Source: Verrucomicrobiota bacterium (GTDB taxonomy: Bacteria; Verrucomicrobiota; Verrucomicrobiia; Chthoniobacterales; JAFAMB01). Taken from it: a stretch of 64,000 nucleotides of DNA. Shown here piece by piece: positions 3,388 through 62,850 of this stretch; position 1 is the first letter of the stretch, and every line of letters starts with the position of its first letter. The DNA lies in NCBI GenBank assembly GCA_019247695.1, contig JAFBAP010000159.1, positions 13,265-77,264 on the forward strand, given 5' to 3'. A model generated the notes under the pieces. That model ran no database searches and was not told the DNA's origin. It saw nothing but the letters and a program-made list of their open reading frames with translations. A program made the position numbers and the translations under genes.

Positions 3388-3832
3388 GGGACGGGTGGCG
3401 GGTGGCGTTCCGAGTTCGGGGTTCGGTCGCACAGCGGGCACAACGTAAGAGTTCACACGGCGAACACGGCGGGCCACGGCGAACACGGCGGGAAGAGGAA
3501 AGAGTTCGGAGTTCGGAGTTCGGGGCTCGGCGTTCGGAGCGGCAGCATGGGGGCCGGTTGCCGGTGTCAAGCTCCGGTTTCGTGGATTTTTTCTGCGTTC
3601 TTCTGCGTGTTCTGCGGATCATTTCGTTTTCCCGCCGGGTGAGCGTGCGCCTCGGGGGAGATCGGACCCGGTTCTACGACGCCTCCGAACCCCGAACTCC
3701 GAACTCCGAACCCCGAACTCTCTCCCCCTCTTCCCGCCGTGTTCGCCGTGGCCCGCCGTGTTCGCCGTGTGAACTCAGTCGTTGTGCCCGCCGTGTGACC
3801 GAACCCCGAACTCCACCCGCCGCCCCTTCTAA
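3388..3832. repeat. modular palindromic intergenic element (word-repeat family A) with ~150-nt inverted arms
   Basis: Left arm ~3393-3542 and right arm ~3682-3826 are reverse complements. The ~140-nt loop carries 'ttttttctgcgttcttctgcgtgttctgcgg' (3587-3617). The same modules recur at 39660-39950, 43165-43612 and 62484-62850. Confidence 0.9.
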
Positions 3833-3835
3833 CTC

Positions 3836-4516
3836 ATGATCACCTGTATCGGTGCCGGTCCCGGCAATCTCTCCTTCCTTACCCAGCGCGGGCGCGAACT
3901 CATCGAATCGGCCGAGGTCGTCGCCGGATTTGCGAGCGTGGTGGAACTGGTCAGGCCATTGGTCTGCTCTCAAACCGAGGTGATCACGATGGGCTACAAG
4001 GATCAGGTCATCAAACTCGCGGAAGTCGCCGAACGGCACCACGCCGGGAAACGCTGCGTGGCCGTGTTCATGGGAGACATCCACTTTTCCGGCTTCCAGT
4101 TCCTTGAACGGATCGAACGCGCGTGCGGGCATCCGGTCGAGACGGTGCCGGGCATCAGTTCCGCCCAGGTGCTTGCCTCGCGCGCCCGGGTCTGCTTCGA
4201 CGAAACCACCTTTCTAACCTTTCATCGCCGGGGCGACATCGTCCCGTTCCAACGCCACCTGGTCCATGCCCTCAAGGATGACCGTAACGCGATCGTCATT
4301 CCGCGTCCCTGGGATTTCATGCCCAAAGAGATCGCCGCATTTCTGCTTGCCGGCGGGATTGCGGGCGAGCACCCGGTGGAAGTCTGGGAACGGCTCACGC
4401 AGGCTGAAGCCGGCTGGCGCGGTGAACTCAAAGATTGCACCCGCGACTTCAGCGACATGAGCATCATGCTCATCCGCACCCTTTGCCCCATGCCCAGCCA
4501 GGTCCAGCCCGTATGA
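3836..4516 (+). CDS. cbiE: cobalt-precorrin-7 (C5)-methyltransferase CbiE (CobL N-domain type)
   Basis: Tetrapyrrole methylase fold with '[15 protein letters not shown]', '[12 protein letters not shown]' and 'VPGISSAQ'. The stop overlaps the next ATG (ATGA at 4513-4516). Confidence 0.75.
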
Positions 4517-6087
4517 CGACGACCGCAAAAGCCGATTACGGTATCGTGATCGCCGGCCACGGCAGCCGCGATCCCGAAGGCGTGCTCGATTTCGAGGGGC
4601 TCGTCCGCCTGATCAAACGACGCGTGCCCGGGCAACAGCACGTTACCCATGGGTACCTCGAGTTTGCCCGGCCGACGATCGCGGAAGCAGTCCGGGCCAA
4701 CATCGCCGCCGGTTCACGCAAGCTGAGCATCGTGCCGGCGGTGCTCCTGGCGGCGACTCACGCCAAGAATGATCTGCCCAGCGAAGTACTCGCCCTCCGG
4801 CGTGAATTCCCGGAAGTCGGGATTCATTATGGCGCACCCCTGCACCTGCACCCGCTGGTCCTGCGGCTCTTTCGGGAACGGATCATCCAGGCCGAAGCGC
4901 AAAGCTCCTCGGTCGTTAAACGCGCCGAAACGTGTCTGGTGGTGGTTGGCCGCGGCACCACCGATCCGGACGCAAATTCAGACGTGTCAAAGCTGGCCCG
5001 CATGCTCGAGGAAGGGCTCGGTCTCGGTGCGTCGTTCGTCTGCTATGCCGGAACGGCGCGCCCGTCGGTCGCCGAAGGACTTCGGCTGGCGGCTCGACTC
5101 GGCCTTCCGAGGATCGTGGTAGCCCCGTTCCTGCTGTTTACCGGGGTGTTGTTGAAGCGGGTCCACGCGGCGGCGGACGAATTGGCGCAGCGGTCCCGGG
5201 GCCACGAGGTGCTCAAATGCGATCCGCTGGGGGCCGATAGTCACCTGGCCGACGCGTTCCTGGAGCGGGCGGCGGAAAGCGTTGAAGGCATGGCGGCCAT
5301 GAATTGCAGCCTTTGCAAATACCGGGTGCAGATCATCGGGTACGAACAGGAAGTCGGAACGCCCCAGCGCGGGCACCATTTTCACGTGCGCGCCGGTGCC
5401 GCCGACGAGCGGCCCGAAAAAGCGGGCCCGCAATTTGAGCTGCACCCGATTGAACGGAAGAGCTTCGAAATCATCGCGGCGGCACGTGACTGGTCAACCT
5501 TTCCTGAAGCTGAACGCGACGTGCTGAAACGCCTCGTGCACACCACCGGCGATACCGGCATCGTGGAAGACGTGTTTATTTCTGCCGGCGCACTTGAGGC
5601 GGGTCTTCGCGCCCTGGCGAGGCGCTGCCCGATCGCCACGGACGTCACGATGGTACAAAGCGGGCTGCGCCGGACCCTGCTCGAGCGGTTTGGCATCGAG
5701 ACATTTTGCGCAGTCCACGACGAGGAAACCCGGCTGCTTGCTGCGGCGACAGGCTGCACCCGTTCAGCCGCGGGTATCCGCCGCGCCTGGGAAAGGTTCG
5801 GGAATGAGACCGTGCTGGCGATCGGTGACGCGCCCACGGCCGTGGAGGAAACCGTGCGCCTGGTCCGGGAACACCGTTGGCGTCCGCAACTCGTGATCGG
5901 GCTGCCGGTCGGGTTCGTCGGCACCCGCGAGTGCAAAGACCAACTCCGTCGCTGCGTGCATATCCCCCGGATCACGAACCGCGGCACCCGCGGCGGATCA
6001 CCCTGGGCTGCCGCCGTGGTGAACGCCTTGCTGATCCGGTTGGCCGCCACCAGGAACGGAGCGGAGAATCGAGCGGTAAACCGATGA
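4513..6087 (+). CDS. cbiX-cbiC: fusion protein: long-form sirohydrochlorin cobaltochelatase CbiX plus precorrin-8X methylmutase CbiC/CobH
   Basis: The N-terminal half has two CbiX repeats ('[12 protein letters not shown]', '[10 protein letters not shown]', '[15 protein letters not shown]') and a Cys motif 'MNCSLCKY'. The C-terminal ~210 aa carry '[10 protein letters not shown]', 'IGDAPTAV', '[10 protein letters not shown]' and '[13 protein letters not shown]', typical of CbiC. Confidence 0.8.
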
Positions 6088-7217
6088 AGGTGATGAACGC
6101 GCTCGATCTGTCCATCCTTGCCGAAAACGGGTTACGCCGCGGGTTCACCACCGGGTCCTGCGCGACGGCGGCGGTGAAAGCGGCGCTGTTGAAATTACTC
6201 TGCGGTGAGCTTACCGGGCGGGTAAACGTCACTTTGCCGGACGGCGAATTTTATCTGACGATTCCGATTGAAAGCGTGTACGACGAACCGGACGGCTGGG
6301 TGCGGGCAACCGTGATCAAGGACGCAGGCGACGATCCGGACCAGACCCATCGGGCCAGGATTTTTGCCCGTGTTCGATCCAATTCCAGCGGCCGGGTCAT
6401 CTTTCGGCGTGGCGAAGGCGTTGGGATCGTGACCCAGCCGGGCCTGGCGGTGCCGGTAGGCGAACCGGCTATCAATCCGGCCCCCCGGAAGATGATTTTG
6501 CGGGCGGTCCAGGAAGTGCTGGCCGAAGGCGATAGCATTGGCCCGTCAGGTTACGACGTTGAGATCGGTTGTGAAAATGGAGCCGAAATCGCCCGCCGCA
6601 CGTTTAACCCGCGTCTCGGGATCGAGGGCGGCATCTCGATCCTCGGCACCACCGGGGTCGTCGAGCCGAAATCAATGGCGGCCTTCAAAGCGTCGATCGA
6701 GACCTATATCCGCGTGGCGCTCGGGGATAACCCGCCCGAAATCGTGCTTGCGCCCGGAAACATCGGACAACGCTTCGCCCGCGCCACGCTTGATGCGCCG
6801 CTTAAGCGGGTCGTGCAGATGTCGAACTTCGTCGGGTTCGCCCTGGACTGCGTCGAGCGCACGCTCCTGGAAAACGGGCAACGGCTCCCCCGTCTGTGGA
6901 TCGTCGGGCACCCGGGCAAGCTCGCGAAGGTTCTTGACGGTGTTTGGGATACGCACTCGCAGCGGAGCGAGAGCGCGGTAAGGCCGGTTCGCCGGATCGC
7001 GGGGGCGTGCGGGTTCACCGCCGAAGAGTGCGCGCGTTTTCAGGCCTCAAGAACGGTGGAGGGAATCATCGAATCCCTGGCCGGTGACGAGCGGGCGCCC
7101 GCTTTCTGGCGCGAGGTTGAGACCCGGATCGCCGCCGCCATAGGCCCGAAGCTGTCCACGGTGGACCGCGTCTGCGTGCGGATTTTTACCCTGGACGGGA
7201 AGGAACTCGGAGGCTGA
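6084..7217 (+). CDS. cbiD: cobalt-precorrin-5B (C1)-methyltransferase CbiD
   Basis: ATGA overlap with the previous gene. 'LRRGFTTGSCATAAVKAA', 'VIKDAGDDPDQTH', 'GISILGTTGVVEP'. Confidence 0.85.
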   Translation: MKVMNALDLSILAENGLRRGFTTGSCATAAVKAALLKLLCGELTGRVNVTLPDGEFYLTIPIESVYDEPDGWVRATVIKDAGDDPDQTHRARIFARVRSNSSGRVIFRRGEGVGIVTQPGLAVPVGEPAINPAPRKMILRAVQEVLAEGDSIGPSGYDVEIGCENGAEIARRTFNPRLGIEGGISILGTTGVVEPKSMAAFKASIETYIRVALGDNPPEIVLAPGNIGQRFARATLDAPLKRVVQMSNFVGFALDCVERTLLENGQRLPRLWIVGHPGKLAKVLDGVWDTHSQRSESAVRPVRRIAGACGFTAEECARFQASRTVEGIIESLAGDERAPAFWREVETRIAAAIGPKLSTVDRVCVRIFTLDGKELGG

Positions 7218-7219
7218 CC

Positions 7220-9559: not shown

Positions 9560-9739
9560 CCGCATGAAGGTAAATCCCGCCCCGCAATCCCTCAGTTCAG
9601 GAGTTGACGCTACCCGCGCGCGTGGTTCGGAGACCGTCTTATGCCATTTAAACCGTTATTTCGGCAACATATCGGCTCAGGGGGCGCCGGCGTCGGATGA
9701 TGCTCCGCACCCTGGTGAATCGGTCTTAGACCCAACGGG

Positions 9740-10300
9740 CCGGCAGAACCTAGCCCAGGGTTCCACCCTGGGAACCGCCCCTCATCCCGGTCGAGGCCTG
9801 AAGGGCCGGCAGAAGGCGTTTGCTACCTTTCTACCGCCCTTTCAGGGCTCAACGGCGTGGAGGATCCTTTTCCAGGGTAACCCCCCCTGCAATTTAGTTA
9901 AGGGCGGCAGGCCGGGCGTGGCCTTCGTCCCGGAGGGACGGCTGAGGTTAGGCAGGTACTTTAGTGCCTGTACCTGTGCGGGCGTTCCCCAGCGGTTGCG
10001 TCCCCTCGGGACGCCTGAAGCGGCGCGCCGGGCCAGGCGGGCATCAAAGGTGGGGAGACCTTCGGGTTTTTGGCGCCGAGGGTCGCGCCGGGTTTGGCCG
10101 GCCGCTTGGGAGTCGGAATCCTCCCGGGCAGCGTTTCAGGCGTCCCGACGGGACGCGATCCCTCTTAAATGCCCCCTCCAGGGACTGAAGTCCCTGGCTA
10201 CGATCAAGGGTCCCTGCGGGACGAAAGCGCCCCCATCCGCCGGCCTTGTATCCTTAACTAAATGGCAGTGGGGTTTACCCTGGGCTAAGTTCCCACGCCC
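9740..10300. repeat. nested imperfect palindrome made of REP-like hairpin units (GTCCC-N3-GGGAC, CCCAGGG-N5-CCCTGGG)
   Basis: Inverted pairs 9872-9939 / 10210-10283 and 9998-10022 / 10132-10156 share one symmetry centre near 10075. Four GTCCCnnnGGGAC hairpins are present. Neither this unit nor this pattern was seen elsewhere in the window. Confidence 0.85.
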
Positions 10301-10363
10301 CTTTGGGGCTAATATCCAGCATAAAAGTATTGTTGAGGCCCAAGCCAGGAAGGCGGGCGCCCG

Positions 10364-16926: not shown

Positions 16927-18636
16927 ATGGATGCTACGCTCCGTTTCCCATTTGTGGCCATCGTCGGAATGGACCTGGCAAAAAGATCGCTGATCTATCA
17001 CGCGATCGACCCGCGGATCGGTGGGGTGCTGCTGCTCGGGCCGCGGGGGAGCGCCAAGACCACGCTCGCCCGCGGCGCGGCCGAATTGTTTAGCACGGCG
17101 CAGGGCGAGCCGGCACCATTTGTCGAGGTCCCGCTCGGAACGACGGAGGATCGCCTGCTCGGTTCCGTGGACGCCGAAGCCCTGGTCGAAGCGGGCCGCT
17201 GGTCGCACCGGCCCGGGCTGCTGGAACAGGCCAACCAGGGGTTGCTCTACATCGACGAAATCAACCTGCTGCCCGATCCCTTGTCCGACCTCCTGCTGGA
17301 CTCCGCCGCAACCGGGTTCCACCGCGTTGAGCGCGAGGGATTCAGCCGCACCGTCGAGAGCCGTTACGTCCTGGTCGGAACCATGAACCCGGATGAGGGC
17401 GATTTACGGCCGCAACTCGCGGACCGGTTTGCGCACGGGGTGCGCATTCAAACGCAATGGACGGAACCGGAACGCGTCGAGATCGTGGCGCGCCGGATGG
17501 AATTTGACGACGCGCCGGGGCCGTTCCTGGAGCGTTTTGCTGAACCGGCCCGGGCGCTCAGCGCCCGTATTCGCGAGGCGCGTAAAGCCGTTCGTTCCGT
17601 AACGATCACCGACGCCCAAAGGCGATCGGTTGCCCAACGCGCCGGCCAATTGCGGCTCGAGGGTCTCCGCGCCGAACTGGCCGTGCTGCGAACCGCGCGC
17701 TCCGCGGCCGCTTTCCAGGGCCGGCGGGAACTGTCCCCCGGCGATCTCGAGGAAGCGTGGGAACTCTGTCTGGGGCACCGGGAGCATCCGGACCGTCCCG
17801 GCACGGCGCCCCCCCCGCGGCCGCCCTCGCATTCCGAAAAGAGCAGTTTCCGGCAAACCGGCCCCGCAACCTCGATCTTGCCGGCTGAAGCCCGCCCTGA
17901 GCCGATCACCTTACCGCCACCGAGGCCGGACGGCCATGCCGGTTTGCAGGACTGGTTCACCACGGCGGTCGCCTTTAGCCGTCGCATGCGCCGTGCCCGG
18001 TGTCCCGGTCCGGCCGAAGGGACCACGCGGGGATCGATCAACTGGATCGCCTCACTTCTCGCCACGCGAATCCGGGCCGGTTCGCAGAAAAAGCCGCGCC
18101 GTTGGGTGTTGCGGACCCGAACTGCCGGACGCCGGACCGGTGTCTGGATCTTTCTGGACGCCAGCCGCTCAACCGGGGTCGGGCATTTCCTCCAGCGCGC
18201 CTGCGGACGGCTTGTTCCCGTGGTAAAATCAAAGGCCGGCCTCGGGGTTCGATTTCACGTCCTGCTGCTGCATGACGGCGCCACGCGGTGGCTCGTCCGA
18301 GACGGGTCCGCGACACGCACCCAAAGCCGGCTGCTTACCTTGGGCCAGGCCGCCGGTAAAAGTCGCCTGACCGAGGCGTTGAACGCGCTGCGGCGAACGC
18401 AGCACCGGCGGCGCGACGCCGGATACGATCCGTTGATTATCCTCTCCGACGGTTTTCTCAGCCCGCGGCCGGGGGAAAACCCGGGTCGGGCCGTGCAACG
18501 CTTCCGCACTATGCTGGTATCCCTGACCGCAAAACGTAAAACGGCATGGCTGCATCCCGTGCCTAAACGCAGCGCGGCAACCTGGTTGCCGCGTCTCACG
18601 GCCGGATGCGACGTGCAGCCTTATGAAATCCGGTGA
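16927..18636 (+). CDS. chelatase ATPase subunit, ChlI/ChlD-type fusion (AAA+ domain, Pro-rich linker, vWA domain); probable CobN partner
   Basis: Walker A 'LLGPRGSAKTT', 'LLYIDEINLL', 'VGTMNPDEGDLRPQLADRF', linker 'PGTAPPPRPPSH', and a vWA/MIDAS-like 'VWIFLDASRSTG'. Confidence 0.75.
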   Translation: MDATLRFPFVAIVGMDLAKRSLIYHAIDPRIGGVLLLGPRGSAKTTLARGAAELFSTAQGEPAPFVEVPLGTTEDRLLGSVDAEALVEAGRWSHRPGLLEQANQGLLYIDEINLLPDPLSDLLLDSAATGFHRVEREGFSRTVESRYVLVGTMNPDEGDLRPQLADRFAHGVRIQTQWTEPERVEIVARRMEFDDAPGPFLERFAEPARALSARIREARKAVRSVTITDAQRRSVAQRAGQLRLEGLRAELAVLRTARSAAAFQGRRELSPGDLEEAWELCLGHREHPDRPGTAPPPRPPSHSEKSSFRQTGPATSILPAEARPEPITLPPPRPDGHAGLQDWFTTAVAFSRRMRRARCPGPAEGTTRGSINWIASLLATRIRAGSQKKPRRWVLRTRTAGRRTGVWIFLDASRSTGVGHFLQRACGRLVPVVKSKAGLGVRFHVLLLHDGATRWLVRDGSATRTQSRLLTLGQAAGKSRLTEALNALRRTQHRRRDAGYDPLIILSDGFLSPRPGENPGRAVQRFRTMLVSLTAKRKTAWLHPVPKRSAATWLPRLTAGCDVQPYEIR

Positions 18637-20514: not shown

Positions 20515-20548
20515 GCCGGCTCGGTTTTTGCCGGTTGACCGAGGGCTG

Positions 20549-20721
20549 GATCGCTGATCTATCACGCGATCGACCCGCGGATCGGTGGGGTGCTGCTGCT
20601 CGGGCCGCGGGGGAGCGCCAAGGCCACGCTCGCCCGCGGCGCGGCCGAATCGTTTAGCACGGCGCAGGGCGAGCCGGATGGAATTTGACGACGCGCCAGG
20701 GCCGTTCCCGGAGCGTTTTGC
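20549..20721 (+). pseudogene. ghost fragment of the ChlI/D-type chelatase gene (copy of 16985-17113 joined to 17497-17540)
   Basis: There is a near-identical nucleotide match (a handful of substitutions) to two non-adjacent pieces of the 16927..18636 gene, joined at a shared 'gccgg'. No complete reading frame remains. Confidence 0.85.
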
Positions 20722-20918
20722 ATCACGAGTCAGAAAAAGCAGCTCGAACGTTCGAACCGGGCTCGACTTTAATCACGGCAAATGGAATTCTCGAAAGAGA
20801 GACTCAAGCCCAGGGGTATTGCGCCGCAATTAACCTGCGATACCTTTGATAATTTCCGCAGATTTCCGCCGAAAAGCCTAGCCAATTCTCTTTTTGACCG
20901 GTATCACACGGGTCGTAC

Positions 20919-21477: not shown

Positions 21478-21741
21478 TCAGGCCAGGGTGGCGGTCGCCT
21501 TTCGCGGCAATGGCACCGCCCAGGCCAGCGTGGCGGTCGCCTTCCGCGGCAATGGCACCGCCCAGGCCAGCGTGGCGGTCGCCTTTCGCGGCAATGGCAC
21601 CGCCCAGGCCAGCGTGGTTGACTCTACGCGCGGGTGCCATGCTCCTGCCTCAGCTCCCGGTTTGGAGGATGCCGTGAATGGCGCCAAGCTGGGGTGGATG
21701 GCGGAAACCGCAACGATAAGAATGAGAATGGTCTTTTTCAT
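21478..21741 (-). CDS. possible small secreted protein with three 14-aa tandem repeats (TLAWAVPLPRKATA)
   Basis: The ATG at 21741 is preceded by 'aagaggggga' (SD-like). The N-terminus 'MKKTILILIVAVSAIHPSLA' looks like a signal peptide. The repeat period is 42 bp (14 codons). There are competing ORFs on the + strand, so coding status is uncertain. Confidence 0.35.
   Translation of the reverse strand: MKKTILILIVAVSAIHPSLAPFTASSKPGAEAGAWHPRVESTTLAWAVPLPRKATATLAWAVPLPRKATATLAWAVPLPRKATATLA
21479..21617. repeat. 42-bp tandem direct repeat, 3.3 copies
   Basis: The units at 21479-21520, 21521-21562 and 21563-21604 differ by 1-2 nt ('caggccagcgtggcggtcgcctttcgcggcaatggcaccgcc'). A partial fourth unit runs to 21617. 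Confidence 0.95.
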
Positions 21742-22160: not shown

Positions 22161-22967
22161 TCAGGAACCGGGTGTGGAAGCCGGCATTGGCGCCGGAGAT
22201 GAACCGGGTGTGGAGGCCGGAGGCGGCGGGGAGGGGGACGGCGTCGATACGGGCGTGGTCCAGGCAGCATTCCGTTTTGCCAGGTCGAGGCCGACTTGGC
22301 GCAGGGCAGCTTCAAAGTACAGGCACCGGCCGTCCGGGTAATATTTGTGGGCGGTCGCCACGTAGTGTTCGACCTGGGGCCAATTTCCCTTTCGAAACCA
22401 ATCCGCGGCCCGGGCGTAGTAATAAGCCGGTGTCTTGCCCGGAATCGGGATGATGTCCGTCACAGTTTTTGCGTTCGCCTCATCACCCAGGAGGAGGTAG
22501 CAAATCGCGATTTTGAACTGCAGGACTTCCGATGAGTGATCCACGCTCTGGAGCTCCTGGTAACGCTGCAGGGCTTCCGGCACGTCACCGTGCAGCCACG
22601 CCAGCTCCGCCAGGTTGAATTTGGCCGGGTAAAAGTTGGGATCGATCGCGATAGCCTGATGATACTTCTCGGCGGCTTCGTCGTAACGCTGTTCACGCGT
22701 CAGCAAGACGCCGCGCAGGTTCGGGATCTCCGCCGCGTTCGGCTGCAATCTTCCGGCGGCCTCGATCTGCTTTTCCGCTTCGGCGAACTTGCCCGCCTGG
22801 ATGGCCTTATAGGCCTGATCGACCGCCAGGTTAAACTTCGCGTTGCTCGAGTCAGCGGCCCGGGCCGCGCCCAACCCCATCAACAGCAAGCAAAAGAAGA
22901 GTGCCGGGTACCGGGTAAACCGGTGCCTGTGAAGTGCGGAATGAAGGAACCGATGCCTCGAATTCAT
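22161..22967 (-). CDS. TPR-repeat protein with a signal peptide and a Pro/Ser/Thr-rich C-terminal tail
   Basis: 'ALFFCLLLMGLGAARA' is signal-like. TPR-like 'NLRGVLLTREQRYDEAAEKYHQAIAIDPNFYPAKFNLAEL'. The tail is 'TPVSTPSPSPPPPASTPGSSPAPMPASTPGS'. The start is ATG at 22967, or GTG at 22994 in the ORF track. Confidence 0.7.
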   Translation of the reverse strand: MNSRHRFLHSALHRHRFTRYPALFFCLLLMGLGAARAADSSNAKFNLAVDQAYKAIQAGKFAEAEKQIEAAGRLQPNAAEIPNLRGVLLTREQRYDEAAEKYHQAIAIDPNFYPAKFNLAELAWLHGDVPEALQRYQELQSVDHSSEVLQFKIAICYLLLGDEANAKTVTDIIPIPGKTPAYYYARAADWFRKGNWPQVEHYVATAHKYYPDGRCLYFEAALRQVGLDLAKRNAAWTTPVSTPSPSPPPPASTPGSSPAPMPASTPGS

Positions 22968-23008
22968 TTCCGGCCGTCCTTTATGGGATGGCACGCGGCG
23001 TAGCCCTT

Positions 23009-23053
23009 CTTCATTTGTGGCATTTTTCCGCTTGTGGCATTTGTGGCATTCTT
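23009..23053. repeat. solo TTGTGGCAT word module (family A component)
   Basis: 'cttcatttgtggcatttttccgcttgtggcatttgtggcattct' is identical to 43377-43421. It lies between the aroG-like stop and the TPR gene start. Confidence 0.9.
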
Positions 23054-23055
23054 CT

Positions 23056-27444: not shown

Positions 27445-27508
27445 GTGGTTCCGGGTCAGGCACCCGGCGCGTGCGTTTAGCGTGCGTTTAGCGTGCGTTT
27501 ACTTACCT

Positions 27509-28468: not shown

Positions 28469-28490
28469 GGTATAAAGGTAAACGCCACAG

Positions 28491-28731
28491 ACTCAGTAAC
28501 GGGTAACGGGTAACGGGTAATGGGTAACGGGTAACGGGTAATGCGTAACGGATAATGGGTGCGGTTCGCCGTTCGCCGTCTACCCTTAAGCTGTGTCCGG
28601 CGGTGCAATCTGTGGATGATTCTTCTTTTCTGCGTGTTCTGCGGCTGATTTCTGCCTTTCTGCGGATCCGCCGCGTGATCGAACCCGCTACCCGCTACCC
28701 GTTACGCGTTACCGGTTACCGGTGACTGAGT
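28491..28731. repeat. palindromic element with GTAACGG heptamer arms (word-repeat family B) and a TTCTGCG core
   Basis: The left arm 'actcagtaacgggtaacgggtaacgggtaatgggtaacgggtaacgggtaatgcgtaacgg' is inverted at 28676-28731 ('cccgctacccgctacccgttacgcgttaccggttaccggtgactgagt'). The core 'cttttctgcgtgttctgcggctgatttctgcctttctgcgg' is shared with family A. Confidence 0.9.
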
Positions 28732-28734
28732 TCA

Positions 28735-35953: not shown

Positions 35954-36233
35954 ACAGAGGATGCCACAGATGCCTGGCTTCCCTCAGCGTCGTTTCGGCC
36001 CTAACTCAACGCCACACGTCGAAGGGCGGAACGTGGTAAAAATCAAGAACGCCAAAACAACCGAACGCTTGCCGCCGGGGACCCGCTGCCGGCACCAAGT
36101 CTCTGACTGCCGATGCGTGACGCGCTCAAGAATGTACGATTAAAGGGCGGGCCTTCATTCGTGGCATTCTCCGTCTTGGGGCATTTCCTTGGTTGAAAAC
36201 CAAGGTTGGCACATATACTCGTAAGTCCATTTT

Positions 36234-39606: not shown

Positions 39607-39631
39607 AGATAATGCCATCCGGTTTACTGCG

Positions 39632-39660
39632 AGGCGGCCTCACAAGGCCGCCTTTTCTTT
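39632..39660 (+). terminator. rho-independent terminator after rpsR
   Basis: Stem 'aggcggcc' / 'ggccgcct' with loop 'tcacaa', followed by 'tttcttt'. Confidence 0.65.
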
Positions 39661-39950
39661 CGTCACACGGCGGGCACAGCGGGTTTGGCGGGCACGACGT
39701 AAGAGTTCACACGGCGAACACGGCGAGCCACGGCGGGAAGAGGAAAGCCAGCAGGGAGGGCGGGCTGGTCAGGCACGCCGAGAATCTACGCCGTCTTTGC
39801 CGGGAGCCGAATTCGGGGCCGCACGTCGGCTGCCGGGTAACTTTGTCTTCCCGCCGTGTTCGCCGTGGCTCGCCGTGTTCGCCGTGTGAACTCAGTCGTT
39901 GTGCCCGCCGTGTGACCGTGTGAACCACAGTCGTCGTGGCCGCCACACCC
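39660..39950. repeat. modular palindromic intergenic element (family A)
   Basis: Left arm 39663-39746 and right arm 39846-39948. Within the right arm, the segment 'cttcccgccgtgttcgccgtggctcgccgtgttcgccgtgtgaactcagtcgttgtgcccgccgtgtgaccg' differs by 1 nt from 3730-3801. Confidence 0.9.
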
Positions 39951-40147
39951 GCCTTTCCTTTAATCCGTGTTCCGCTTGTGGGATTTATTACGTTTTTACG
40001 TCAAGTGAAAAATCCCTAAACCGCTTGCTCCGAGGTTATTTATGACTAAATTTCTGGTCCCCTGGTTCCGTAAAGGCCGCCACGAGATGGCGACCCGGGC
40101 TCGGGCTAATTTGGCAACCGTGGTTTGTTGGTCGTTTTAATATTTTT

Positions 40148-41827
40148 ATGACAGAAATGCAGGAGCTAATCGCGAAGTCCCTGCGCGATTACAAGGAAGG
40201 CAGCATTGTAAAGGGGCGCGTACTGGAAGTGCGGCCTCGCGAGGTCCTCGTCGACATCGGCTATAAGTCCGAGGGTGTGATACCCGCGTCGGAATTTGAT
40301 GATATCAACGAGGTCGAGGTCGGTGATGAGGTCGAAGTGCTGCTCGAGAAGCTCGAAAACGAAGATGGGATGGTTGTTCTTTCCAAAGAGAAGGCCGCCC
40401 ACAAGCAGAACTGGGACAAGATTGTCAAGGTTTTTGAGGGCGATGGCCTGATCAAGGGCAAGGTCCGTGCGGTTGTCAAAGGCGGCCTTACGGTCAACAT
40501 CGGTGTTGAAGCCTTTCTCCCCGGTTCTCAGATTGACATCGTTCCGCCCAAAGATTTACAGCAGTTTGTCGGTAACACGTACGATTTCAAAATCGTTAAG
40601 ATCAACGACGAACGAAAGAACGTCGTGCTGAGCCGGCGCGAAATCATCGAACAGGAGCGCGCCGAGAAACGTGCCCGGTTCCTTGAGACCGTAAAAGTCG
40701 GCGACACCGTCCGGGGTACGGTCAAGAACCTGACGGATTTCGGTGCGTTCATTGACCTGGACGGTATGGACGGCCTGTTGCACATCACCGACATGACCTG
40801 GGGTCGCCTGACCCACCCGAGCGAGTTGCTCAAGATCGGTCAGGAAGTCGAGGTGGTGGTGCTTGACATCAATCGGGAAAAAGAGCGCGTCTCGCTCGGC
40901 CTTAAGCAGACTCAGCGCAATCCTTGGGATAAGATCGAGGAACGGTTCCCCGTCGGAGCCAAAGTCCGTGGCCGGGTCACCAACCTCGTCCCTTACGGCG
41001 CGTTTGTCGAAATTGAGGAGGGCGTGGAAGGTCTGATCCACGTGTCTGAACTTTCCTGGACGAAACGGGTCACGCGTCCGTCGGATGTCCTGACTCAGGG
41101 ACAGGAAATCGAGGCGGTGGTGCTCGGGGTCAACAAGGAAGAACAAAAAATCTCGCTCGGCGTCCGCCAACTCGAGCCCAACCCGTGGGATGAGATTGAG
41201 CACAAGTACGTCATCGGCTCCCGCGTACGCGGCAAGATCCGCAACATGACTGCGTACGGCGCCTTTGTGGAACTTGAAGAGGGCATCGATGGCATGATCC
41301 ACGTGTCCGACCTGAGTTGGACCCGCAAAATCAATCATCCCAGTGAAGTTCTGAAGAAGAACGATGAGGTTGAAGCGGTGGTCCTGGACATCGACAAGGT
41401 CAATCAGCGCATCAGCCTTGGCATCAAGCAACTCGAGTCTGATCCGTGGAAGGAAATCGATCAGAAGTACAAGATCGGTGACCTCGTGCACGGCAAGGTA
41501 ACCAAGCTGGCCAGCTTCGGCGCCTTCGTGCAGCTGCAGGATGATATCGATGGTCTGGTGCACATCTCGCAACTGAGCGAGGAACACGTCGCGAAGGTCA
41601 AGGATGTGCTCAAGGTGGGCCAGGAAGTGGAAGCCCGCGTGATCAAGGTTGATAAAAACGAGCGTCGCATCGGTCTCTCGATCAAGGCAGCCCATTACTC
41701 CGACGATGAACTCCGTCGGGAAACGGAAGCTTTCGACAGCTTGCGCCCTGGTGAGGACATGGTCGGCTTGGAGCAGGCGTTCCAGGCGGCTGAAGAAGAG
41801 TACCGGCCGGGCGATCGTAAGAAATAA
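40148..41827 (+). CDS. rpsA: 30S ribosomal protein S1 (six S1 domains)
   Basis: Repeated S1 motifs: 'GRVLEVRPREVLVDIGYKSEGVIP', 'GTVKNLTDFGAFIDLDGMDGLLHITDM', 'GRVTNLVPYGAFVEIEEGVEGLIHVSEL', and others. Confidence 0.95.
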   Translation: MTEMQELIAKSLRDYKEGSIVKGRVLEVRPREVLVDIGYKSEGVIPASEFDDINEVEVGDEVEVLLEKLENEDGMVVLSKEKAAHKQNWDKIVKVFEGDGLIKGKVRAVVKGGLTVNIGVEAFLPGSQIDIVPPKDLQQFVGNTYDFKIVKINDERKNVVLSRREIIEQERAEKRARFLETVKVGDTVRGTVKNLTDFGAFIDLDGMDGLLHITDMTWGRLTHPSELLKIGQEVEVVVLDINREKERVSLGLKQTQRNPWDKIEERFPVGAKVRGRVTNLVPYGAFVEIEEGVEGLIHVSELSWTKRVTRPSDVLTQGQEIEAVVLGVNKEEQKISLGVRQLEPNPWDEIEHKYVIGSRVRGKIRNMTAYGAFVELEEGIDGMIHVSDLSWTRKINHPSEVLKKNDEVEAVVLDIDKVNQRISLGIKQLESDPWKEIDQKYKIGDLVHGKVTKLASFGAFVQLQDDIDGLVHISQLSEEHVAKVKDVLKVGQEVEARVIKVDKNERRIGLSIKAAHYSDDELRRETEAFDSLRPGEDMVGLEQAFQAAEEEYRPGDRKK

Positions 41828-43164: not shown

Positions 43165-43612
43165 GGAAGGCATCCACAGATTAAAGTCACACAGTGGCCA
43201 CGGAGAGAAAACAGAATCATCCGCAGAACACGCAGACAACGCAGAAAAGAGAAAACATCCACAGATTACACAGATTGACACGGATTAAGGGCACACGGCA
43301 GCCGCAACGTACGAGTTCACACGGCGCCACGACGGAACACGGCGACCACGGTGGGAAGCCATGCCGCCCGGCGCCTCTTCATTTGTGGCATTTTTCCGCT
43401 TGTGGCATTTGTGGCATTCTCTTCCGCTCCGAACCCCGAACTCCGAACTCCGAACTCCGAACTCTTTCCCCCCCTTCTTCCCGCCGTGGTCGCCGTGGCC
43501 CGCCGTGGTCGCCGTGTGAACTCTTGCGTCGTGCCCGCCAAACCCGCCGTGTGACCGACACCCGACACCCGGCACTCGGCACCCGACACCGTTCCGTCAT
43601 TTGTGGCATTTT
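43165..43612. repeat. modular palindromic intergenic element (family A, largest composite)
   Basis: It contains the CACAGATT, reversed TTCTGCG ('ccgcagaacacgcagacaacgcagaaaag'), CACGGCG, TTGTGGCAT (43377-43421), CGAACTC x4, GTGGTCGCC and CGACACC (43556-43590) word blocks. Confidence 0.9.
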
Positions 43613-46888: not shown

Positions 46889-47629
46889 ATGACGGCAAGA
46901 CCGGTCAAAGCGCCAAACTGGGGACGCCGGGTCTTCATCTGGCTCGTGACGGTGACGGCATTGCTCCTGACGGTGCCCATGGCCGAGGTGGCGGTCGTGC
47001 GATTTTGGGATCCCCCGGTCACGACGGTGATGATCCAACGCCAAGTCGAACGCTGGCTTGGGTCTCCGTACCGGGCCGGCATCGACTACCGCTGGGTGCC
47101 GCTGCACTCGGTTTCAGACAACTTCCTCAAAGGGGTCTGGCAAATGGAGGACAGCCGCTTTTTCAAGCACGACGGCTTTGATTGGATCGAGATGGAGCAG
47201 GCCATGGCCCAGGCCAAGGCAAAAAATCAGCCGGTACGAGGCGTCTCGACGATCAGCATGCAATGCGCTCGATCCCTCTTTCTGTGGCAAAGCCGCTCAT
47301 GGCTGCGCAAGGGAATCGAAGCGTACTACACGTTCCTGATGGAACGCCTTCTGACGAAGGAAAGGATCCTCGAACTGTACGTAAACGTGATCGAACTCGG
47401 CGACGGAATTTATGGGATCCAGGCGGCCGCGGAACGGTATTATGGGGTAAATGCGGATCGGTTGACCCGCGCTCAGGGGGCAATGCTGGCAGCGCTGCTG
47501 CCTTTTCCCCGGGGCTGGAATCCGTTGCATCCGAGTCCCCGCCTCCAGCGGCGGTTTATCCTGGTGCTGAAACGGATGAATGAAGGCGGTTCCATCGAGC
47601 GCAATCTGGGGGATACCGGTAACGGGTAG
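46889..47629 (+). CDS. mtgA: monofunctional biosynthetic peptidoglycan transglycosylase
   Basis: GT51 motifs 'MEDSRFFKHDGFDW', 'GVSTISMQCARSLFL', 'RKGIEAYYTFLME' and 'ILELYVNVIELGDGIYG'. The last codons lie in the GTAACGG repeat. Confidence 0.85.
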   Translation: MTARPVKAPNWGRRVFIWLVTVTALLLTVPMAEVAVVRFWDPPVTTVMIQRQVERWLGSPYRAGIDYRWVPLHSVSDNFLKGVWQMEDSRFFKHDGFDWIEMEQAMAQAKAKNQPVRGVSTISMQCARSLFLWQSRSWLRKGIEAYYTFLMERLLTKERILELYVNVIELGDGIYGIQAAAERYYGVNADRLTRAQGAMLAALLPFPRGWNPLHPSPRLQRRFILVLKRMNEGGSIERNLGDTGNG

Positions 47630-47712
47630 CAACCAGGTAACCGGTCCCGGCGAATCGCCGGTTAACCGTTACCCGTTACCCGTTACGAGGTACCCGTTAC
47701 GGCCGGTTAACC
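47615..47712. repeat. GTAACGG-word palindromic element (family B) between convergent mtgA and atpC
   Basis: 'accggtaacgggtagcaaccaggtaaccggtcccggcgaatcgccggttaaccgttacccgttacccgttacgaggtacccgttacggccggttaacc', with a central hairpin 'ccggcg aat cgccgg'. Confidence 0.85.
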
Positions 47713-52439: not shown

Positions 52440-52443
52440 GCCT

Positions 52444-56919: not shown

Positions 56920-56922
56920 AAG

Positions 56923-57131
56923 CGGTAACGCGTAACGAGTAACGGGTAACGGGTGGCGGGTCGAGTAAATGCCGCTCAGGGGTGACTTCGACGGCTCGTG
57001 CGCATGGCGTTGATTCCATACCGGCGGTGAAGCAGTTCTTCCTGGGCTGACGCGCGGCGCTCTCCACCGGGTACAACGTCGGCTTGCGGTCTTCCACCCG
57101 CTATTCGTTACGCGTTACCCGTTACCCGCCC
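56923..57131. repeat. family B element: GTAACGG-word inverted arms around a 134-nt unique core
   Basis: The arms 'cggtaacgcgtaacgagtaacgggtaacgggtggcgggt' (56923-56961) and 'cacccgctattcgttacgcgttacccgttacccgcccc' (57096-57131) lie between convergent stops at 56919 and 57148. Confidence 0.85.
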
Positions 57132-57147
57132 CTCTCTTCCATTTTCC

Positions 57148-58521: not shown

Positions 58522-58653
58522 GTTCTACCGCCAGACACCAGTATCGCTGAAACCTTTTGCGCCCCTTCGCGTCTTCAGGTCTGAAGAATCGGGACCAACC
58601 TTGACCGCTCGTCAGATTGGCTAAGCCAAGCTTTCCTCAACGTCCTCAATGCT

Positions 58654-60225: not shown

Positions 60226-60241
60226 CCCTTCCTCCTTCCTT

Positions 60242-61558
60242 ATGCCACATCAGCCCGAAGTTCTTACCCGGCGTCGTTTTCTGCGCACGTCCGTGCTGGG
60301 CGCGGCGCTCAGCTGGACGGTTCCGCTGTTCATTGAACGCACTTTCTCGACCCTGAATGCCGCCGCGGCCGAGTCTGCGTCCTCCCTGCAAGTGCCCACG
60401 GGACGAGATCATCCCATCCTCGTCGTCCTGCAATTGGCGGGCGGGAACGATGGGCTGAACACCCTGATCCCGTACGAGGACGACGCTTATTACCGCGCCC
60501 GGCCCACGCTGGGCATTCCCAAAACCCGGGTTTTGCCCCTGAGCGACCGCATCGGCCTGCACCCGGCGCTGGCCCCGCTGGCGGATCTTTACCACGAAGG
60601 AGCGCTGGCAATCCTGCAAGGGGTCGGTTACCCCAACCCTAACCGGTCGCATTTTCGGTCCACCGAAATCTGGCAGACGGCTTCCGATGCAAACCGGGTT
60701 TCAACCAAAGGCTGGATCGGACGGTACTTCGACAATTGTTGCTCGGGCGGGGACCCGACCGTCGGCGTCAGCTTGGGCCAACAACTGCCGCAGGCATTCA
60801 ATGCGCAGCAACCGGTCGGTATGGCGATTGAACGGCCGGATCACCTCGGCCTGCCGAAAGTGGGTGACGCCTTCGAAAGGGCTGCCTTCGAACAACTCAA
60901 CGGCCTGGACCACGAACTCGATGCCGGCAATGCCGGAGGTTCCATCGCCGGCTTGAATGGCTCCCTGCATTCCAACCTCTCGCCCCTGGATTACCTTCAA
61001 CGGGTTGCGCTCGATGCGCAGGTGGGCGCCGACCGGATCAGCGCGATCCTGAAGCGGACCAGAGACGAAGCAAACTATCCGAACACGCAGCTCGGGCGTT
61101 CGTTGAGCTCGATTGCTCGATTGATTGCGGGCGGCCTCACCACGCGGGTGTATTATCTCAGCCACGGCGGTTTTGATACGCACAACAATCAAGGCGAGGC
61201 TCATCAAAGGCTCCTGGGTGAACTCGCCGGTGCCACCGATGCTTTCTGCCATGACCTGCGTAGCAAGGGGTTGCTCGACCGCGTGACGCTGATGACGTTC
61301 AGCGAGTTCGGGCGACGCGTCGCCGAGAACGCCAGCAAAGGGACTGACCACGGGACCGCCGCCCCGCTTTTTGTAATGGGCGGTGCAATCCGGCCCGGGC
61401 TCTACGGGCGCCAGCCCAGCCTCGAGCAACTGGATGCGGGCGACCTAATTTTCAACGTCGATTTTCGTTCGGTTTACGCCACGATCCTTGAACGATGGAT
61501 GCAGGCGCCTGCCCAAAAGGTGCTTGGCCGGGAATTCCCGTTGCTGGCATTTTTGTAA
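60242..61558 (+). CDS. DUF1501-domain protein (sulfatase-like fold) with a twin-arginine signal
   Basis: 'TRRRFLRTSVLGAALS' Tat motif, 'QLAGGNDGLNTLIPY', 'GGFDTHNNQ', 'FSEFGRRVAENASKGTDHG'. Confidence 0.8.
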   Translation: MPHQPEVLTRRRFLRTSVLGAALSWTVPLFIERTFSTLNAAAAESASSLQVPTGRDHPILVVLQLAGGNDGLNTLIPYEDDAYYRARPTLGIPKTRVLPLSDRIGLHPALAPLADLYHEGALAILQGVGYPNPNRSHFRSTEIWQTASDANRVSTKGWIGRYFDNCCSGGDPTVGVSLGQQLPQAFNAQQPVGMAIERPDHLGLPKVGDAFERAAFEQLNGLDHELDAGNAGGSIAGLNGSLHSNLSPLDYLQRVALDAQVGADRISAILKRTRDEANYPNTQLGRSLSSIARLIAGGLTTRVYYLSHGGFDTHNNQGEAHQRLLGELAGATDAFCHDLRSKGLLDRVTLMTFSEFGRRVAENASKGTDHGTAAPLFVMGGAIRPGLYGRQPSLEQLDAGDLIFNVDFRSVYATILERWMQAPAQKVLGREFPLLAFL

Positions 61559-61700
61559 GAACCTAAAGGGCTCACCTCGTAAATGCAGCCGGTTGCATTG
61601 CGACCCCGGGCACCGGGGCCGCCGGAGTTCCGCGTTTTGATGCGTCAAAGCTTGCCCTCCGGACTCCGAAGCTTATGCTCACGCACCTGGGGCTTGCGAT

Positions 61701-62483
61701 GTGAAACTCCTTTTGACCTCAGATTTTCACTTTCACCGGCCATGGTACGACTGGCTTTTAGATCACGGGCCCCAGTACGACCTCGTGGCCATCGCCGGAG
61801 ATTTGATGGAAATGCATTACCCCGGAGGGGTGGTGCCGCAGCTTATTTACCTTCACGGTTGGGTACGGACGATGCTCAAGCGAGGGGCGGTTCTGGCGGT
61901 CTGCTCCGGTAACCACGACCTGCCTTCGACCGCGCCGATGGTCGTGCCGCACCAGGGTATCGATAAAGAACGCGTCGCGCTCCTCGAGGGGTTTGCGAAG
62001 CATGAACATTGGTTGCAGGCCTTGCGCCGCGATCACCAGATCACCGTCGACCAGGACCATCGCATCATTCGCACCAATTCCGGGGAGAGCCTCATGGTAA
62101 GCTGCGCGCCTTACCGCGCCGACGGCCAGTTTTTGTTCCGTGAACATTTCCCGCCCCCCTGGCTCCTGCTGCACCATGAACCGCCCGGGGGCACGACCCT
62201 GGCAGGACCGAATACGGGCAACCAGGCCCTGGCCGAATTCGTCCGAAAAACACCGCCGAAATACGTTTTAAGCGGCCACGCCCATTTCAGCGAATCGGGC
62301 CATAACGCTTTCCATGAGCGTATCGGCAAGGCGCATTGCTTCAACTGCCGCCAATACCCAACGGCCGGTATCCGCCCCCCGGCGCCCAACGTGATTCTTC
62401 TCGACACCGGCGCCGGCACGGCAACCTGGCGCTTCTACACGCAGGACAGCACCCCGCAGCAGGCCGTCGTGGAATTGGACTGA
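61701..62483 (+). CDS. calcineurin-like metallophosphoesterase
   Basis: 'LLTSDFHF', 'VAIAGDLME', 'CSGNHD', 'VLSGHAHF'; GTG start. Confidence 0.7.
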   Translation: MKLLLTSDFHFHRPWYDWLLDHGPQYDLVAIAGDLMEMHYPGGVVPQLIYLHGWVRTMLKRGAVLAVCSGNHDLPSTAPMVVPHQGIDKERVALLEGFAKHEHWLQALRRDHQITVDQDHRIIRTNSGESLMVSCAPYRADGQFLFREHFPPPWLLLHHEPPGGTTLAGPNTGNQALAEFVRKTPPKYVLSGHAHFSESGHNAFHERIGKAHCFNCRQYPTAGIRPPAPNVILLDTGAGTATWRFYTQDSTPQQAVVELD

Positions 62484-62850
62484 GAAAAGAGGAAACATCC
62501 ACAGATTACACAGATTGACACAGATTACGGTCACACGGTCGCACGGCGGACACAGCGGAGAAGAATCACACGGCGCCACGGCGGAACACGGCGACCACGG
62601 CGGGAAGAGGGGGAAAGAGTTCGGAGTTCGGGGCTCGGGGTTCGGAGCGGCAGAGAATGCCACAAATGAAGAGGCGCCGGGTCTGGTAATCTTTTTTCTG
62701 CGTTCTCTGCGTGTTCTGCGGTTGATTCTGTCTTTCCGCCGTGGTCGCCGTGGTCCGCCGTGTTCGCCGTGTGAACTCTTACGTTGCGCCCGCCGTGTGA
62801 CCGTGTGAACTCTTTCGTCGTGCCCGCCACCCTCTTCATTTGTGGCATTT
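62484..62850. repeat. modular palindromic intergenic element (family A) filling the gap between two convergent stop codons exactly
   Basis: Words CACAGATT x3, CACGGCG arms (62531-62617 vs 62733-62808), 'agaatgccacaaatgaagagg' (62654-62674) inverted at 62831-62852, and the core 'cttttttctgcgttctctgcgtgttctgcgg' (62691-62721). Confidence 0.9.

Follow-up and report, generated by a model that had tools for sequence, protein, structure and literature searches.

What are the palindromes of stuttered words that occupy intergenic gaps in a 64-kb stretch of Chthoniobacterales (Verrucomicrobiota) DNA from a soil metagenome, and to which gene, if any, do they belong? In this stretch, hereafter the window, an earlier reading of the sequence (the original prediction) had described eight loci built from short words repeated with small variations and set as inverted arms around a core of about 100-140 nt, with a TTCTGCG core sequence in four of them. 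Chthoniobacterales are among the commonest soil bacteria, and here the elements make up 3-4% of a typical chromosomal stretch. With moderate confidence, we read the loci as gene-less nested modules that form a population like that of bacterial interspersed mosaic elements (BIMEs), at least two kinds of module being copies of the terminal inverted repeats around genes for GxxExxY proteins. The support comes from word homology, gene bracketing, co-occurrence in one assembly, module gain and loss, and hairpin potential.

GxxExxY genes elsewhere lie between word types of the window

Clustering of the 710 genes called in 123 core-bearing loci (820 kb) yielded one small recurrent family, present in 7 of the 123 loci and identified as PF13366 PDDEXK_3 (E-values 2e-36 to 7e-42) and as TIGR04256, GxxExxY protein. 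Profile searches of six-frame open reading frames (ORFs) found no member of this family in ~825 kb of control loci or in the syntenic relatives. The original prediction had proposed a search for a PD-(D/E)XK gene with the same words in its flanks, and such a gene exists: GxxExxY genes are bracketed by TTCTGCG and CACAGATTA-type words. At loci L167 and L254 the gene stands between ATCCGCAGAACACGCAGAGGACGCAGAAAAAGAG on the left and TTTTTCTGCGTGATCTGCGTGTTCTGCGGAT on the right, a pair of inverted TTCTGCG arms; in L167 only 14 nt separate the left arm from the ATG, and the TGA stop codon falls inside the right arm. When called genes of up to 900 nt were ranked by flank complementarity, the five complete GxxExxY genes took ranks 1-5. 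Nonamers keep the reading frame, so gene calls that extend too far run on through the words and give proteins with N-tails PQITQITQI or MTQM and C-tails SAKSAD or SADYADFAD; the tail FSALSACSAD of protein P0122 corresponds exactly to the translated window core.

The association extends beyond the seven founding loci, which had been selected by the core, since protein homology alone led to eight more genes (L247-L253 and L256). At the DNA level, inverted word arrays bracket 9 of 13 GxxExxY genes, and the other four show a one-sided palindrome or direct word blocks on both sides. The core-selected locus L219 carries CACACGAAA / TTTCGTGTA words. Among the genes found by protein homology alone, L251 reads ATCCGCAGATTTTCGCAGATTGGCGCAGATTTT-ATG ... 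AATCCGCGTAAATCTGCGGAT, L252 and L253 read ATCCGCAGATGACGCAGAG ... GCGTCATCTGCGGATGA, and L256 reads ATCCACAGATTACGCAGATTACGCAGAT ... AATCTGCGGAATCTGCGAAATCTGCGGAT followed by AATCTGTGGAT arrays that equal the CACAGATTA type of the window; the words of all four are of the CACAGATTA/AATCTGTGGAT type. Plasmid-borne GxxExxY genes were also met in Treponema, Gemmatirosa, Fusobacteria and Persicobacter, the Treponema gene having inverted CACGGATT words.

A link closer to the window is provided by P0121, an identical protein encoded on contig ERZ27313880:k141_598932, which belongs to the same assembly as the window contig. The GC content of k141_598932 is 61.3% (61.5% in the window), and its repeat blocks are 90-100% identical to those of the window, including 42 nt identical to 3589-3630. 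Likewise, the core of element 1 (Table 1) is 100% identical over 42 nt to two stretches of L254 (4184-4225 and 4408-4449).

The TTCTGCG core and the CACAGATTA/TAATCTGTG words are thus terminal inverted repeats that elsewhere bracket GxxExxY genes. Their arms consist of two to three words of 9-10 nt, about one helical turn apart, and share the end tag ATCC(G/A)CAG...CTG(C/T)GGAT. We define here, provisionally, a class of GxxExxY-cassette inverted repeats by comparison with L167, L251-253 and L256; the tag together with two to three tandem 9-10-nt words was found at 3587-3620, 28607-28668, 43172-43287, 62497-62527 and 62691-62721. The core at 3587-3620 is a right-hand terminal inverted repeat of the cassette type that lacks the gene. 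Since these are gene-less copies of gene-bracketing repeats, the window would represent the non-autonomous side of a partnership between repeat and enzyme.

The main rival of this reading takes GxxExxY for a selfish cassette, similar to a homing endonuclease, that inserts in the centre of pre-existing palindromes, the dispersed palindromes being its empty targets. The gene does lie exactly at the loop position of an otherwise gene-less palindrome whose arms supply the start and stop codons, many family members are found on very short contigs, and Steczkiewicz et al. describe 'multiple transfers' for the family (PMC3424549). Such a cassette nevertheless leaves unexplained both the multiplication of gene-less palindromes and the co-variation of word type with gene copy across phyla, and no occupied and empty pair was seen at one orthologous site. 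We therefore regard it as unlikely, though by no means negligible.

Two side observations concern the loci with genes and the heptamer words. On the nuclease-bearing contig L254, the left-arm blocks of CACGGCG and GAGTTCG words occur twice in tandem at 2367-2670 with no right arm, so solo arms can also be amplified in tandem. A search for a gene between heptamer arms gave one 94-aa ORF only (L176, 987-1271), with no credible Pfam match; it lies within the ~380-nt centre of a GTAACGS-armed element, its best Pfam hit is DUF2271 (E-value 0.01, below the cutoff), and it could be either a small gene carried by a heptamer-armed hairpin or non-coding.

The nuclease family and its predicted fold

Residues D78, E88 and K90 are invariant in 54 sequences of the family, as is the G..E..Y motif, and an AlphaFold2 model (pLDDT 88.8) shows a PD-(D/E)XK fold. 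By the defining alpha-beta-beta-beta-alpha-beta core and the catalytic D...(D/E)xK pattern, the partner protein is placed within the PD-(D/E)XK superfamily, and the nuclease looks active. Foldseek returned Cas4 SSO0001, lambda exonuclease, RecE, a splicing endonuclease and Hjc, with E-values of ~1e-3 and TM scores of 0.3-0.5, and a phmmer match to T7 endonuclease I was not significant (E-value 0.2). To call the protein a junction resolvase is not warranted, the Foldseek matches being generic and the match to T7 endonuclease I weak. The family comprises 31,929 clusters at 50% identity (E <= 1e-3), or 12,766 at E <= 1e-10, and a survey of PD-(D/E)XK proteins lists its function as 'Unknown' (PMC3424549). 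The two word types linked to GxxExxY genes offer a first testable function for this large family.

Architecture of the intergenic elements

All eight loci were located where they had been reported. They total 2144 nt, or 3.4% of the window, in agreement with the estimate of about 2 kb, and they are non-coding and modular, with arms of stuttered words. Tandem Repeats Finder detected the heptamer arrays (GTAACGG, GAGTTCG/CGAACTC and CGACACC) and the arrays of period 9/19 (CGCCGTG-type, CACAGATTA, TTGTGGCAT and TTCTGCG) at these loci and confined to them, the GTAACGG array reaching 9.3 copies at 28496-28560. In a scan for word arrays, the only array of three or more words outside the loci was one chance case inside rpsA. 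The word TTGTGGCAT occurs 9 times against 0.42 expected, a number reached in 0 of 100 shuffles, and ATCCRCAGA occurs 8 times against 0.67 expected, 7 of these inside elements.

The arm-core-arm architecture that had been attributed to all loci stands for seven of the eight, which are long imperfect palindromes; 23009-23053 is a solo array that lacks an inverted partner and does not fold beyond its shuffles (Table 1), and therefore does not have this architecture. The longest inverted repeat (3400-3498 / 3727-3825) spans 99 nt with 90% complementarity. Folded as single strands and compared with dinucleotide shuffles, the seven palindromic loci were more stable than expected (z -2.6 to -19.7), element 1 (3388-3835) with a folding energy of -343.6 kcal/mol, and six other intergenic gaps used as control gave z values between -2.4 and +0.8.

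The TTCTGCG core was found in all four loci for which it had been claimed. Near-identity of copies 36 kb apart holds for blocks of ~40-90 nt, which are 92-97% identical (96% for 3434-3481 with 39688-39735, 97% for 3509-3545 with 62617-62653), and not for whole elements. The solo array at 23009-23053 is 87% identical to 43352-43420, and the centre of element 7 measures 154 nt. In element 5, the 85-nt core module is bounded by a 12-nt direct repeat of ATCCACAGATTA (43172-43183 and 43257-43268). A ninth, degenerate locus had escaped the original prediction; with a folding z of 0.0 we consider it only a remnant, and the orthologous gap of the relative L245 holds a GGTGTCG-armed element followed by TTTGTGGCAT.

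Table 1. Repeat elements of the window and their component blocks. z, folding stability of the single strand relative to dinucleotide shuffles; strand is given as a point where none applies.
Feature	Position	Strand	z	Description
Element 1	3388-3835	.	-19.7	nested palindrome filling the whole gap between two + strand genes
Element 1, layer GGTGGCG	3394-3407 / 3813-3826			
Element 1, layer GAGTTCG x2	3412-3425 / 3800-3813			
Element 1, layer CACGGCG x4 / CGCCGTG x4	3456-3490 / 3735-3769			
Element 1, layer GAGTTCG x5 / CGAACTC x5	3502-3536 / 3686-3720			centre asymmetric
Element 1, core	3587-3620	+		three TTCTGCG words, end CTGCGGAT
Locus 2	23009-23053	+	+0.3	solo TTGTGGCAT x3 array
Element 3	28491-28731	.	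-6.4	GTAACGG x8-9 (28495-28560) / CCGTTAC-type x5 (28683-28720)
Element 3, loop	28607-28617; 28624-28668			AATCTGTGGAT; TTCTGCG words ending CTGCGGAT
Element 4	39660-39950	.	-8.7	CACGGCG-word 39663-39735 / CGCCGTG-word 39846-39945
Element 5	43165-43612	.	-6.7	mosaic, blocks in the order of the next three rows
Element 5, blocks (a)	43172-43353			ATCCACAGATTA 43172-43183; core module; CACAGATTA x3 43257-43287; CACGGCG x4 43320-43353
Element 5, blocks (b)	43380-43516			TTGTGGCAT x3 43380-43418; CGAACTC x5 43427-43464; CGCCGTG x4 43480-43516
Element 5, blocks (c)	43555-43609			CGACACC x5 43555-43590; TTGTGGCAT 43601-43609
Element 5, core module (85 nt)	43184-43268	-		contains ATCCGCAGAACACGCAGACAACGCAGAA at 43219-43246
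Element 6	47615-47712	.	-3.0	short GTAACGG / CCGTTAC-armed hairpin; convergent gap
Element 7	56923-57131	.	-2.6	GGTAACG x4 (56924-56951) / CGTTACC x3 (57106-57126); convergent gap
Element 8	62484-62850	.	-9.4	convergent gap filled from stop codon to stop codon
Element 8, blocks (a)	62484-62647			AGAAAAGAGGAAAC + ATCCACAGATTA-type x3 62484-62527; CACGGCG x4 62566-62603; GAGTTCG x4 62617-62647
Element 8, blocks (b)	62654-62771			ATGCCACAAATG 62654-62668; TTCTGCG core 62691-62721; CGCCGTG x4 62735-62771
Element 8, blocks (c)	62767-62848			GTGTGAACTC blocks 62767-62829; TTGTGGCAT 62840-62848
Ninth locus	~35954-36200	.		degenerate; GATGCCACAGATG left edge, TTCATTCGTGGCATTCTCCGTCTTGGGGCATTTCC right edge

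Placement relative to genes

Gene context was established with our own codon-usage gene caller and with the gene calls of a near-identical public contig. Elements occupy three convergent gaps (47630-47706, 56920-57147 and 62484-62850) and five co-directional ones (3388-3835, 22890-23055, 28469-28734, 39607-40156 and 43178-43612), and none of the four divergent gaps of the window carries one, so that all eight loci lie downstream of at least one gene. The reported abutment on stop codons was borne out at 3387/3388, 62483/62484, 62850/62851, 43612/43613, 28734/28735 and 56919/56920, several elements spanning from stop codon to stop codon. Element 4 lies between a terminator-like hairpin (39631-39654) and the conserved rpsA leader. 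That hairpin (39631-39658 with its tail), GGCGGCC-TCACAA-GGCCGCC followed by TTTTCTTTC, stands directly after rpsR and is kept in L245, and the rpsA leader, at ~39990-40156, is conserved among relatives.

Two functional labels were tried on this placement and rejected. Exclusion from promoter-side gaps, suggested by the window, did not hold in the larger set of 150 core occurrences, where 12 of the 69 matches between genes lie in divergent gaps according to our own, crude gene caller. As for intrinsic terminators, 12 sites were found where 11.0 were expected, and the canonical site lies upstream of element 4 and outside it.

The elements might still be signals selected by the host, such as terminators, insulators, stabilisers of mRNA 3' ends or protein platforms of the kind proposed for BIMEs, with the nuclease merely sharing the hairpins. 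Their very strong hairpin potential, the position of all window loci downstream of a gene and the abutment of several on stop codons would agree with a function of this sort. However, a separate canonical terminator hairpin already precedes element 4, the terminator scan does not single out the elements above chance, and relative to genes the core favours neither strand (22:17) and does occur in divergent gaps in the larger set. Orthologous gaps of relatives, moreover, lack the elements, and their content is mosaic and variable instead of conserved, all of which makes host selection a rather improbable account.

Spread, gain and loss of modules

The elements are not confined to the window. A scan of genome contigs (596 Gb) with a 16-nt core pattern gave 120 stretches, most of them chance matches because so short a pattern is not selective at this scale, and these chance-match loci were reused as the ~825-kb control mentioned above. 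The scan nevertheless picked out two metagenome-assembled genomes (MAGs): JAFAUY01 (Verrucomicrobiota) has seven copies and uses the same set of words, and a Pontiella MAG carries a simpler relative. With a 23-base core pattern more than 116 metagenome stretches match, a figure that is a lower bound. No match was obtained among the viral contigs scanned with the core, so there is no sign of a phage origin.

Core-bearing stretches come in two forms, composites like those of the window and a simple palindrome. The latter, gene-less and of the form CCGCAGAACACGCAGAACACGCAGAA - 20-40 nt - TTCTGCGTNNTTCTGCGTGTTCTGCGG, is present in many unrelated metagenomes and in the Pontiella MAG. Among the composites, a GAGTTCG-armed form with a conserved, non-palindromic centre of ~190 nt recurs at at least 13 loci with 3-12 heptamers per arm; in it the TAATCTGTG module forms a clean indel at ...GTGGAT. 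Of the 150 core occurrences, 68 are within reach of a contig end (metagenome loci L122-L237). The elements are thus a frequent cause of assembly breaks in soil metagenomes, and their words are good markers for strain typing and for the diagnosis of misassembly in these MAGs. Many GxxExxY homologues, we note separately, are found on contigs shorter than 2 kb. In JAFAUY01, at loci L018, L032, L038 and L066, the TTCTGCG core is flanked by a module of the form GGATCCGCCGC - ~40 nt - GCGGCGGAT(G/A)ATCGTC, whose ends resemble the ATCC...GGAT tag and whose copies show apparently compensatory differences (GCCGAAC...GTTCGGC as against GCCGCC...GTGCGGC).

That the elements are dynamic, as had been proposed, is evident from related contigs. 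The window corresponds to contig k141_1600040 of the ENA metagenome assembly ERZ27313880. The public contig L121 matches the window at 99.6-99.9% identity along 21.6 kb, and all indels fall inside elements: element 4 differs by one word (+9 nt), a small palindrome (+76 nt) and a further +9 nt, element 5 by three heptamers (+21 nt). The contig L245, from a sister species with ~92-94% nucleotide identity, has element 4 reduced to ~45 nt, a different, GGTGTCG-armed element in the PrmA gap, and the edge of element 5 without its 85-nt core module. Each module is thus gained or lost on its own, which accounts for the onion-like nesting of the arms. Syntenic relatives were reached through homologues of ribosomal protein S1, the window protein being 95-99% identical to those of Chthoniobacterales/Verrucomicrobia MAGs; in six of them the VitK2-LPG synthase gap measures 17-46 nt, compared with 435 nt in the window, and in several the S18-S1 gap measures 152-213 nt, compared with 550 nt. 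Thus, orthologous gaps in relatives hold no element or a different one, while blocks remain 90-100% identical between loci. The idea that the shared core makes the two arm types one system needs qualification, as the core is indeed shared but is a separable module, absent in L245, and the GTAACGG-armed locus that carries it has the core module sitting in its loop.

These comparisons bear on the possibility that nothing moves at all, the arrays changing by replication slippage in place and resembling one another through gene conversion only. Indels of word multiples (9 and 21 nt) are the sole differences between near-identical contigs, and arrays range from 3 to 12 units between copies, as slippage would produce. 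Yet pure in-place slippage cannot explain why blocks that span several modules (40-99 nt) share 90-100% identity between unlinked loci and across contigs; nor does it account for the conserved, non-repetitive ~190-nt centre in at least 13 loci, for whole elements absent from orthologous gaps or for the same core across phyla. We disfavour this account and hold it to be very improbable.

A further observation from a relative concerns the convergent gap between a transglycosylase gene and the ATP-synthase-epsilon gene of L239 (16547-16869), which contains an unrelated palindrome with arms of ~55 nt (GGCGCAGGTAGG..GGGTGAGGCTCCGCCCGAACCGGGGCTTCCCGC) and a centre of ~170 nt. Several kinds of long-armed intergenic palindromes therefore seem typical of the order.

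A possible mechanism and the evidence against it

If the gene-less modules are indeed the non-autonomous partners of GxxExxY genes, they would be mobilised by the nuclease. Acting in trans, it would recognise the words and cut at or near the GGAT tag. Modules would be copied into or beside existing palindromes, giving rise to the onion-like nesting; word number would drift by replication slippage, hairpin-templated correction would keep the arms complementary, and the hairpins would build up at sites that tolerate them, for the most part downstream of genes. Arms made of heptamers (GTAACGG, GAGTTCG and GGTGTCG) travel with the modules as composites.

A wider proposition, tentative and in our own estimate rather doubtful, is that GxxExxY (PF13366) is the PD-(D/E)XK counterpart of the transposases associated with repetitive extragenic palindromic sequences (REPs), known as REP-associated tyrosine transposases (RAYTs), and the partner of a widespread class of palindromic repeats. 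The nuclease would recognise tandem 9-nt words, cut at the GGAT tag of hairpins or cruciforms and drive copying and nesting in Verrucomicrobiota, Kiritimatiellota, Gemmatimonadota, Spirochaetota, Bacteroidota and Fusobacteriota, and the stuttered words could be either arrays for nuclease binding or traces left by staggered cuts made and filled in time after time. Should the repeats prove to be acted on by the nuclease, they would represent a second solution of the REP-RAYT type, distinct in mechanism, and a natural system in which to follow how palindromes grow from tandem words with both arms kept complementary.

Several observations weigh against the partnership of repeats and nuclease. Six-frame hmmsearch and low-stringency tblastn (noise only) found no GxxExxY gene or remnant in the window, whose copies are therefore gene-less, and that k141_598932 and the window belong to one genome is something we infer from their common sample, GC content and the repeats found on both. 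The core itself was the criterion by which the seven founding loci were chosen. Not all genes show the inverted layout: the Gemmatirosa gene has a downstream palindrome only, (CACGCGGAT)3-loop-(ATCCGCGTG)3, and those of Fusobacteria and Persicobacter have related word blocks on both sides that are direct, not inverted. The heptamer, CACGGCG and TTGTGGCAT words, which account for most of the element mass, bracket no gene that we found. No target-site duplication or conserved insertion site was detected at the simple palindromes, which just extend to TTGCCCGCAG...CTGCGGGCAA, and assembly artefacts in repeats may account for part of the indels that separate L121 from the window, which may otherwise reflect strain differences. 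Finally, we know of no mechanism by which a PD-(D/E)XK nuclease of ~125 aa could alone copy DNA.

Comparison with known repeat families

The original prediction held that the elements are no insertion sequence, miniature inverted-repeat transposable element (MITE) or REP/BIME family with a published description. Indeed, no described family matches: searches of Rfam gave no match on the elements at the gathering threshold, nor at E <= 0.05 over the window, and in full-text literature searches neither the core sequence nor an association of GxxExxY genes with repeats turned up, although their coverage is incomplete and an earlier description is possible. It was also correct that the window holds no transposase. 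Nevertheless, because GxxExxY genes are bracketed by the words, the elements are best regarded as resembling REPs, REPINs and BIMEs in kind while having another enzyme as partner. A CRISPR array was ruled out, as the words are tandem repeats of 7-10 nt without spacers and the arrays form inverted pairs.

By analogy, the REP/REPIN-RAYT systems are closest in logic. Their repeats, too, are small palindromes found between genes in many copies, frequently as inverted pairs, which bracket a small, low-copy gene of nuclease type, with the repeat co-varying with the gene copy, and they carry a short conserved end tag, GTAG/CGTC in REPs and GGAT/ATCC or GGGC here; REPs are defined as imperfect palindromes of 20-40 bp, one end of which carries a GTAG or CGTC tag that stays unpaired (PMC3733652). 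The differences are that the partner here is a PD-(D/E)XK protein (PF13366) and not an HUH Y1 transposase, that the arms are tandem 9-10-nt words of 26-35 nt or longer heptamer arrays, ending in CTG(C/T)GGAT or CTGCGGGC with no GTAG/CGTC tag, that they overlap start and stop codons, and that composites are nested up to 450 nt. As in BIMEs, a small number of repeat modules forms mosaics in extragenic gaps, mostly 3' of genes, and how many modules there are varies from locus to locus. The likeness is one of kind only: the Y, Z1 and Z2 units and linker motifs that define BIMEs are absent, and the modules are stuttered heptamer or nonamer arrays with arms of up to ~170 nt, unrelated to the REP Y/Z motifs. 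To our knowledge, concentric, onion-like nesting is not a BIME feature.

Correia/NEMIS, BOX, RUP and ERIC elements are likewise non-coding repeats of 100-450 nt with terminal inverted repeats, stable hairpins and presence/absence variation, and the internal units of BOX vary in number. In contrast to MITEs and such modular repeats, neither a target-site duplication nor a parent insertion sequence of the DDE type was found here, and the candidate parent encodes a nuclease of ~125 aa only. Inverted ends are present, and the 12-nt direct repeat at the core module could be a duplication or a deletion substrate.

This comparison leads to the last of the rival accounts, in which the elements are ordinary MITEs or REPINs moved by a DDE transposase or an HUH RAYT encoded elsewhere in the genome, with GxxExxY as a passenger. 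Their terminal inverted repeats, high copy number and presence/absence polymorphism, together with the breaking of contigs at elements (the core matches at contig edges), would be expected of such elements, and the verrucomicrobium O. terrae is rich in RAYT-type REPs (PMC3733652). On the other hand, no RAYT flanked by the words was met in the 820 kb of repeat-bearing loci, where the flanked PF13366 gene is the sole recurrent small gene, although no dedicated whole-genome scan for RAYT or DDE genes was made. Furthermore, there was no sign of a GTAG/CGTC tag or of a target-site duplication, the arms consist of tandem nonamers over 26-35 nt and not of REP stem-loops of 20-40 bp, and the layout of gene and words recurs in other phyla with other words. 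A conventional enzyme appears quite improbable for these reasons, and we continue to prefer GxxExxY as the candidate partner.

For the heptamer words, the closest counterpart is found in intergenic heptamer arrays, namely the short tandemly repeated repetitive sequences (STRR) of cyanobacteria and the TAACTGA repeats of Beggiatoaceae, Cyanobacteria and Bacteroidetes. The TAACTGA sets are nearly all direct (169 direct, 1 indirect) and lie just upstream of start codons (PMC4679880). Like them, our arrays are intergenic tandem heptamers with variable copy number and patchy phylogenetic distribution, but ours flank a core as inverted pairs and lie for the most part 3' of genes. The architecture also recalls the eukaryotic Foldback (FB) transposons, which have long inverted arms of short tandem repeats with variable units and centre; they belong to another domain of life and have no relation in sequence or enzyme, so that the likeness is limited to architecture. 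Intervening sequences of 23S rRNA enclose a small ORF between long inverted repeats able to form a stem, but they lie inside rRNA genes, a context that does not apply here, and the protein usually cited for them is PF05635.

Other features of the window

The 804-nt gap at 9560-10363 has a low coding score and contains many inverted repeats and short hairpins. With L220 (1686-2098) it shares 80% identity, and it holds two near-threshold matches to the Acido-Lenti-1 RNA (RF01687, gathering score 37), at 10178-10223 (+, 35.8 bits) and 9728-9772 (-, 33.7 bits), as well as two further, weaker ones. This gap looks like a second, unrelated family of repeats or hairpins.

Direct repeats link 16985-17113 with 20549-20677 (129 nt, 98%) and 17487-17540 with 20668-20721 (54 nt, 94%), as a piece from the 5' portion of the gene 16927-18636 is duplicated in the gap at 20515-20918. 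At 21479-21617, a 42-nt unit is repeated in tandem (3.3 copies, 96% identity, score 264); its period is a multiple of 3, and the gene calls over it are weak and ambiguous. A perfect 11-nt tandem repeat, GCGTGCGTTTA x3, lies at 27469-27501 in a short gap between two minus-strand genes.

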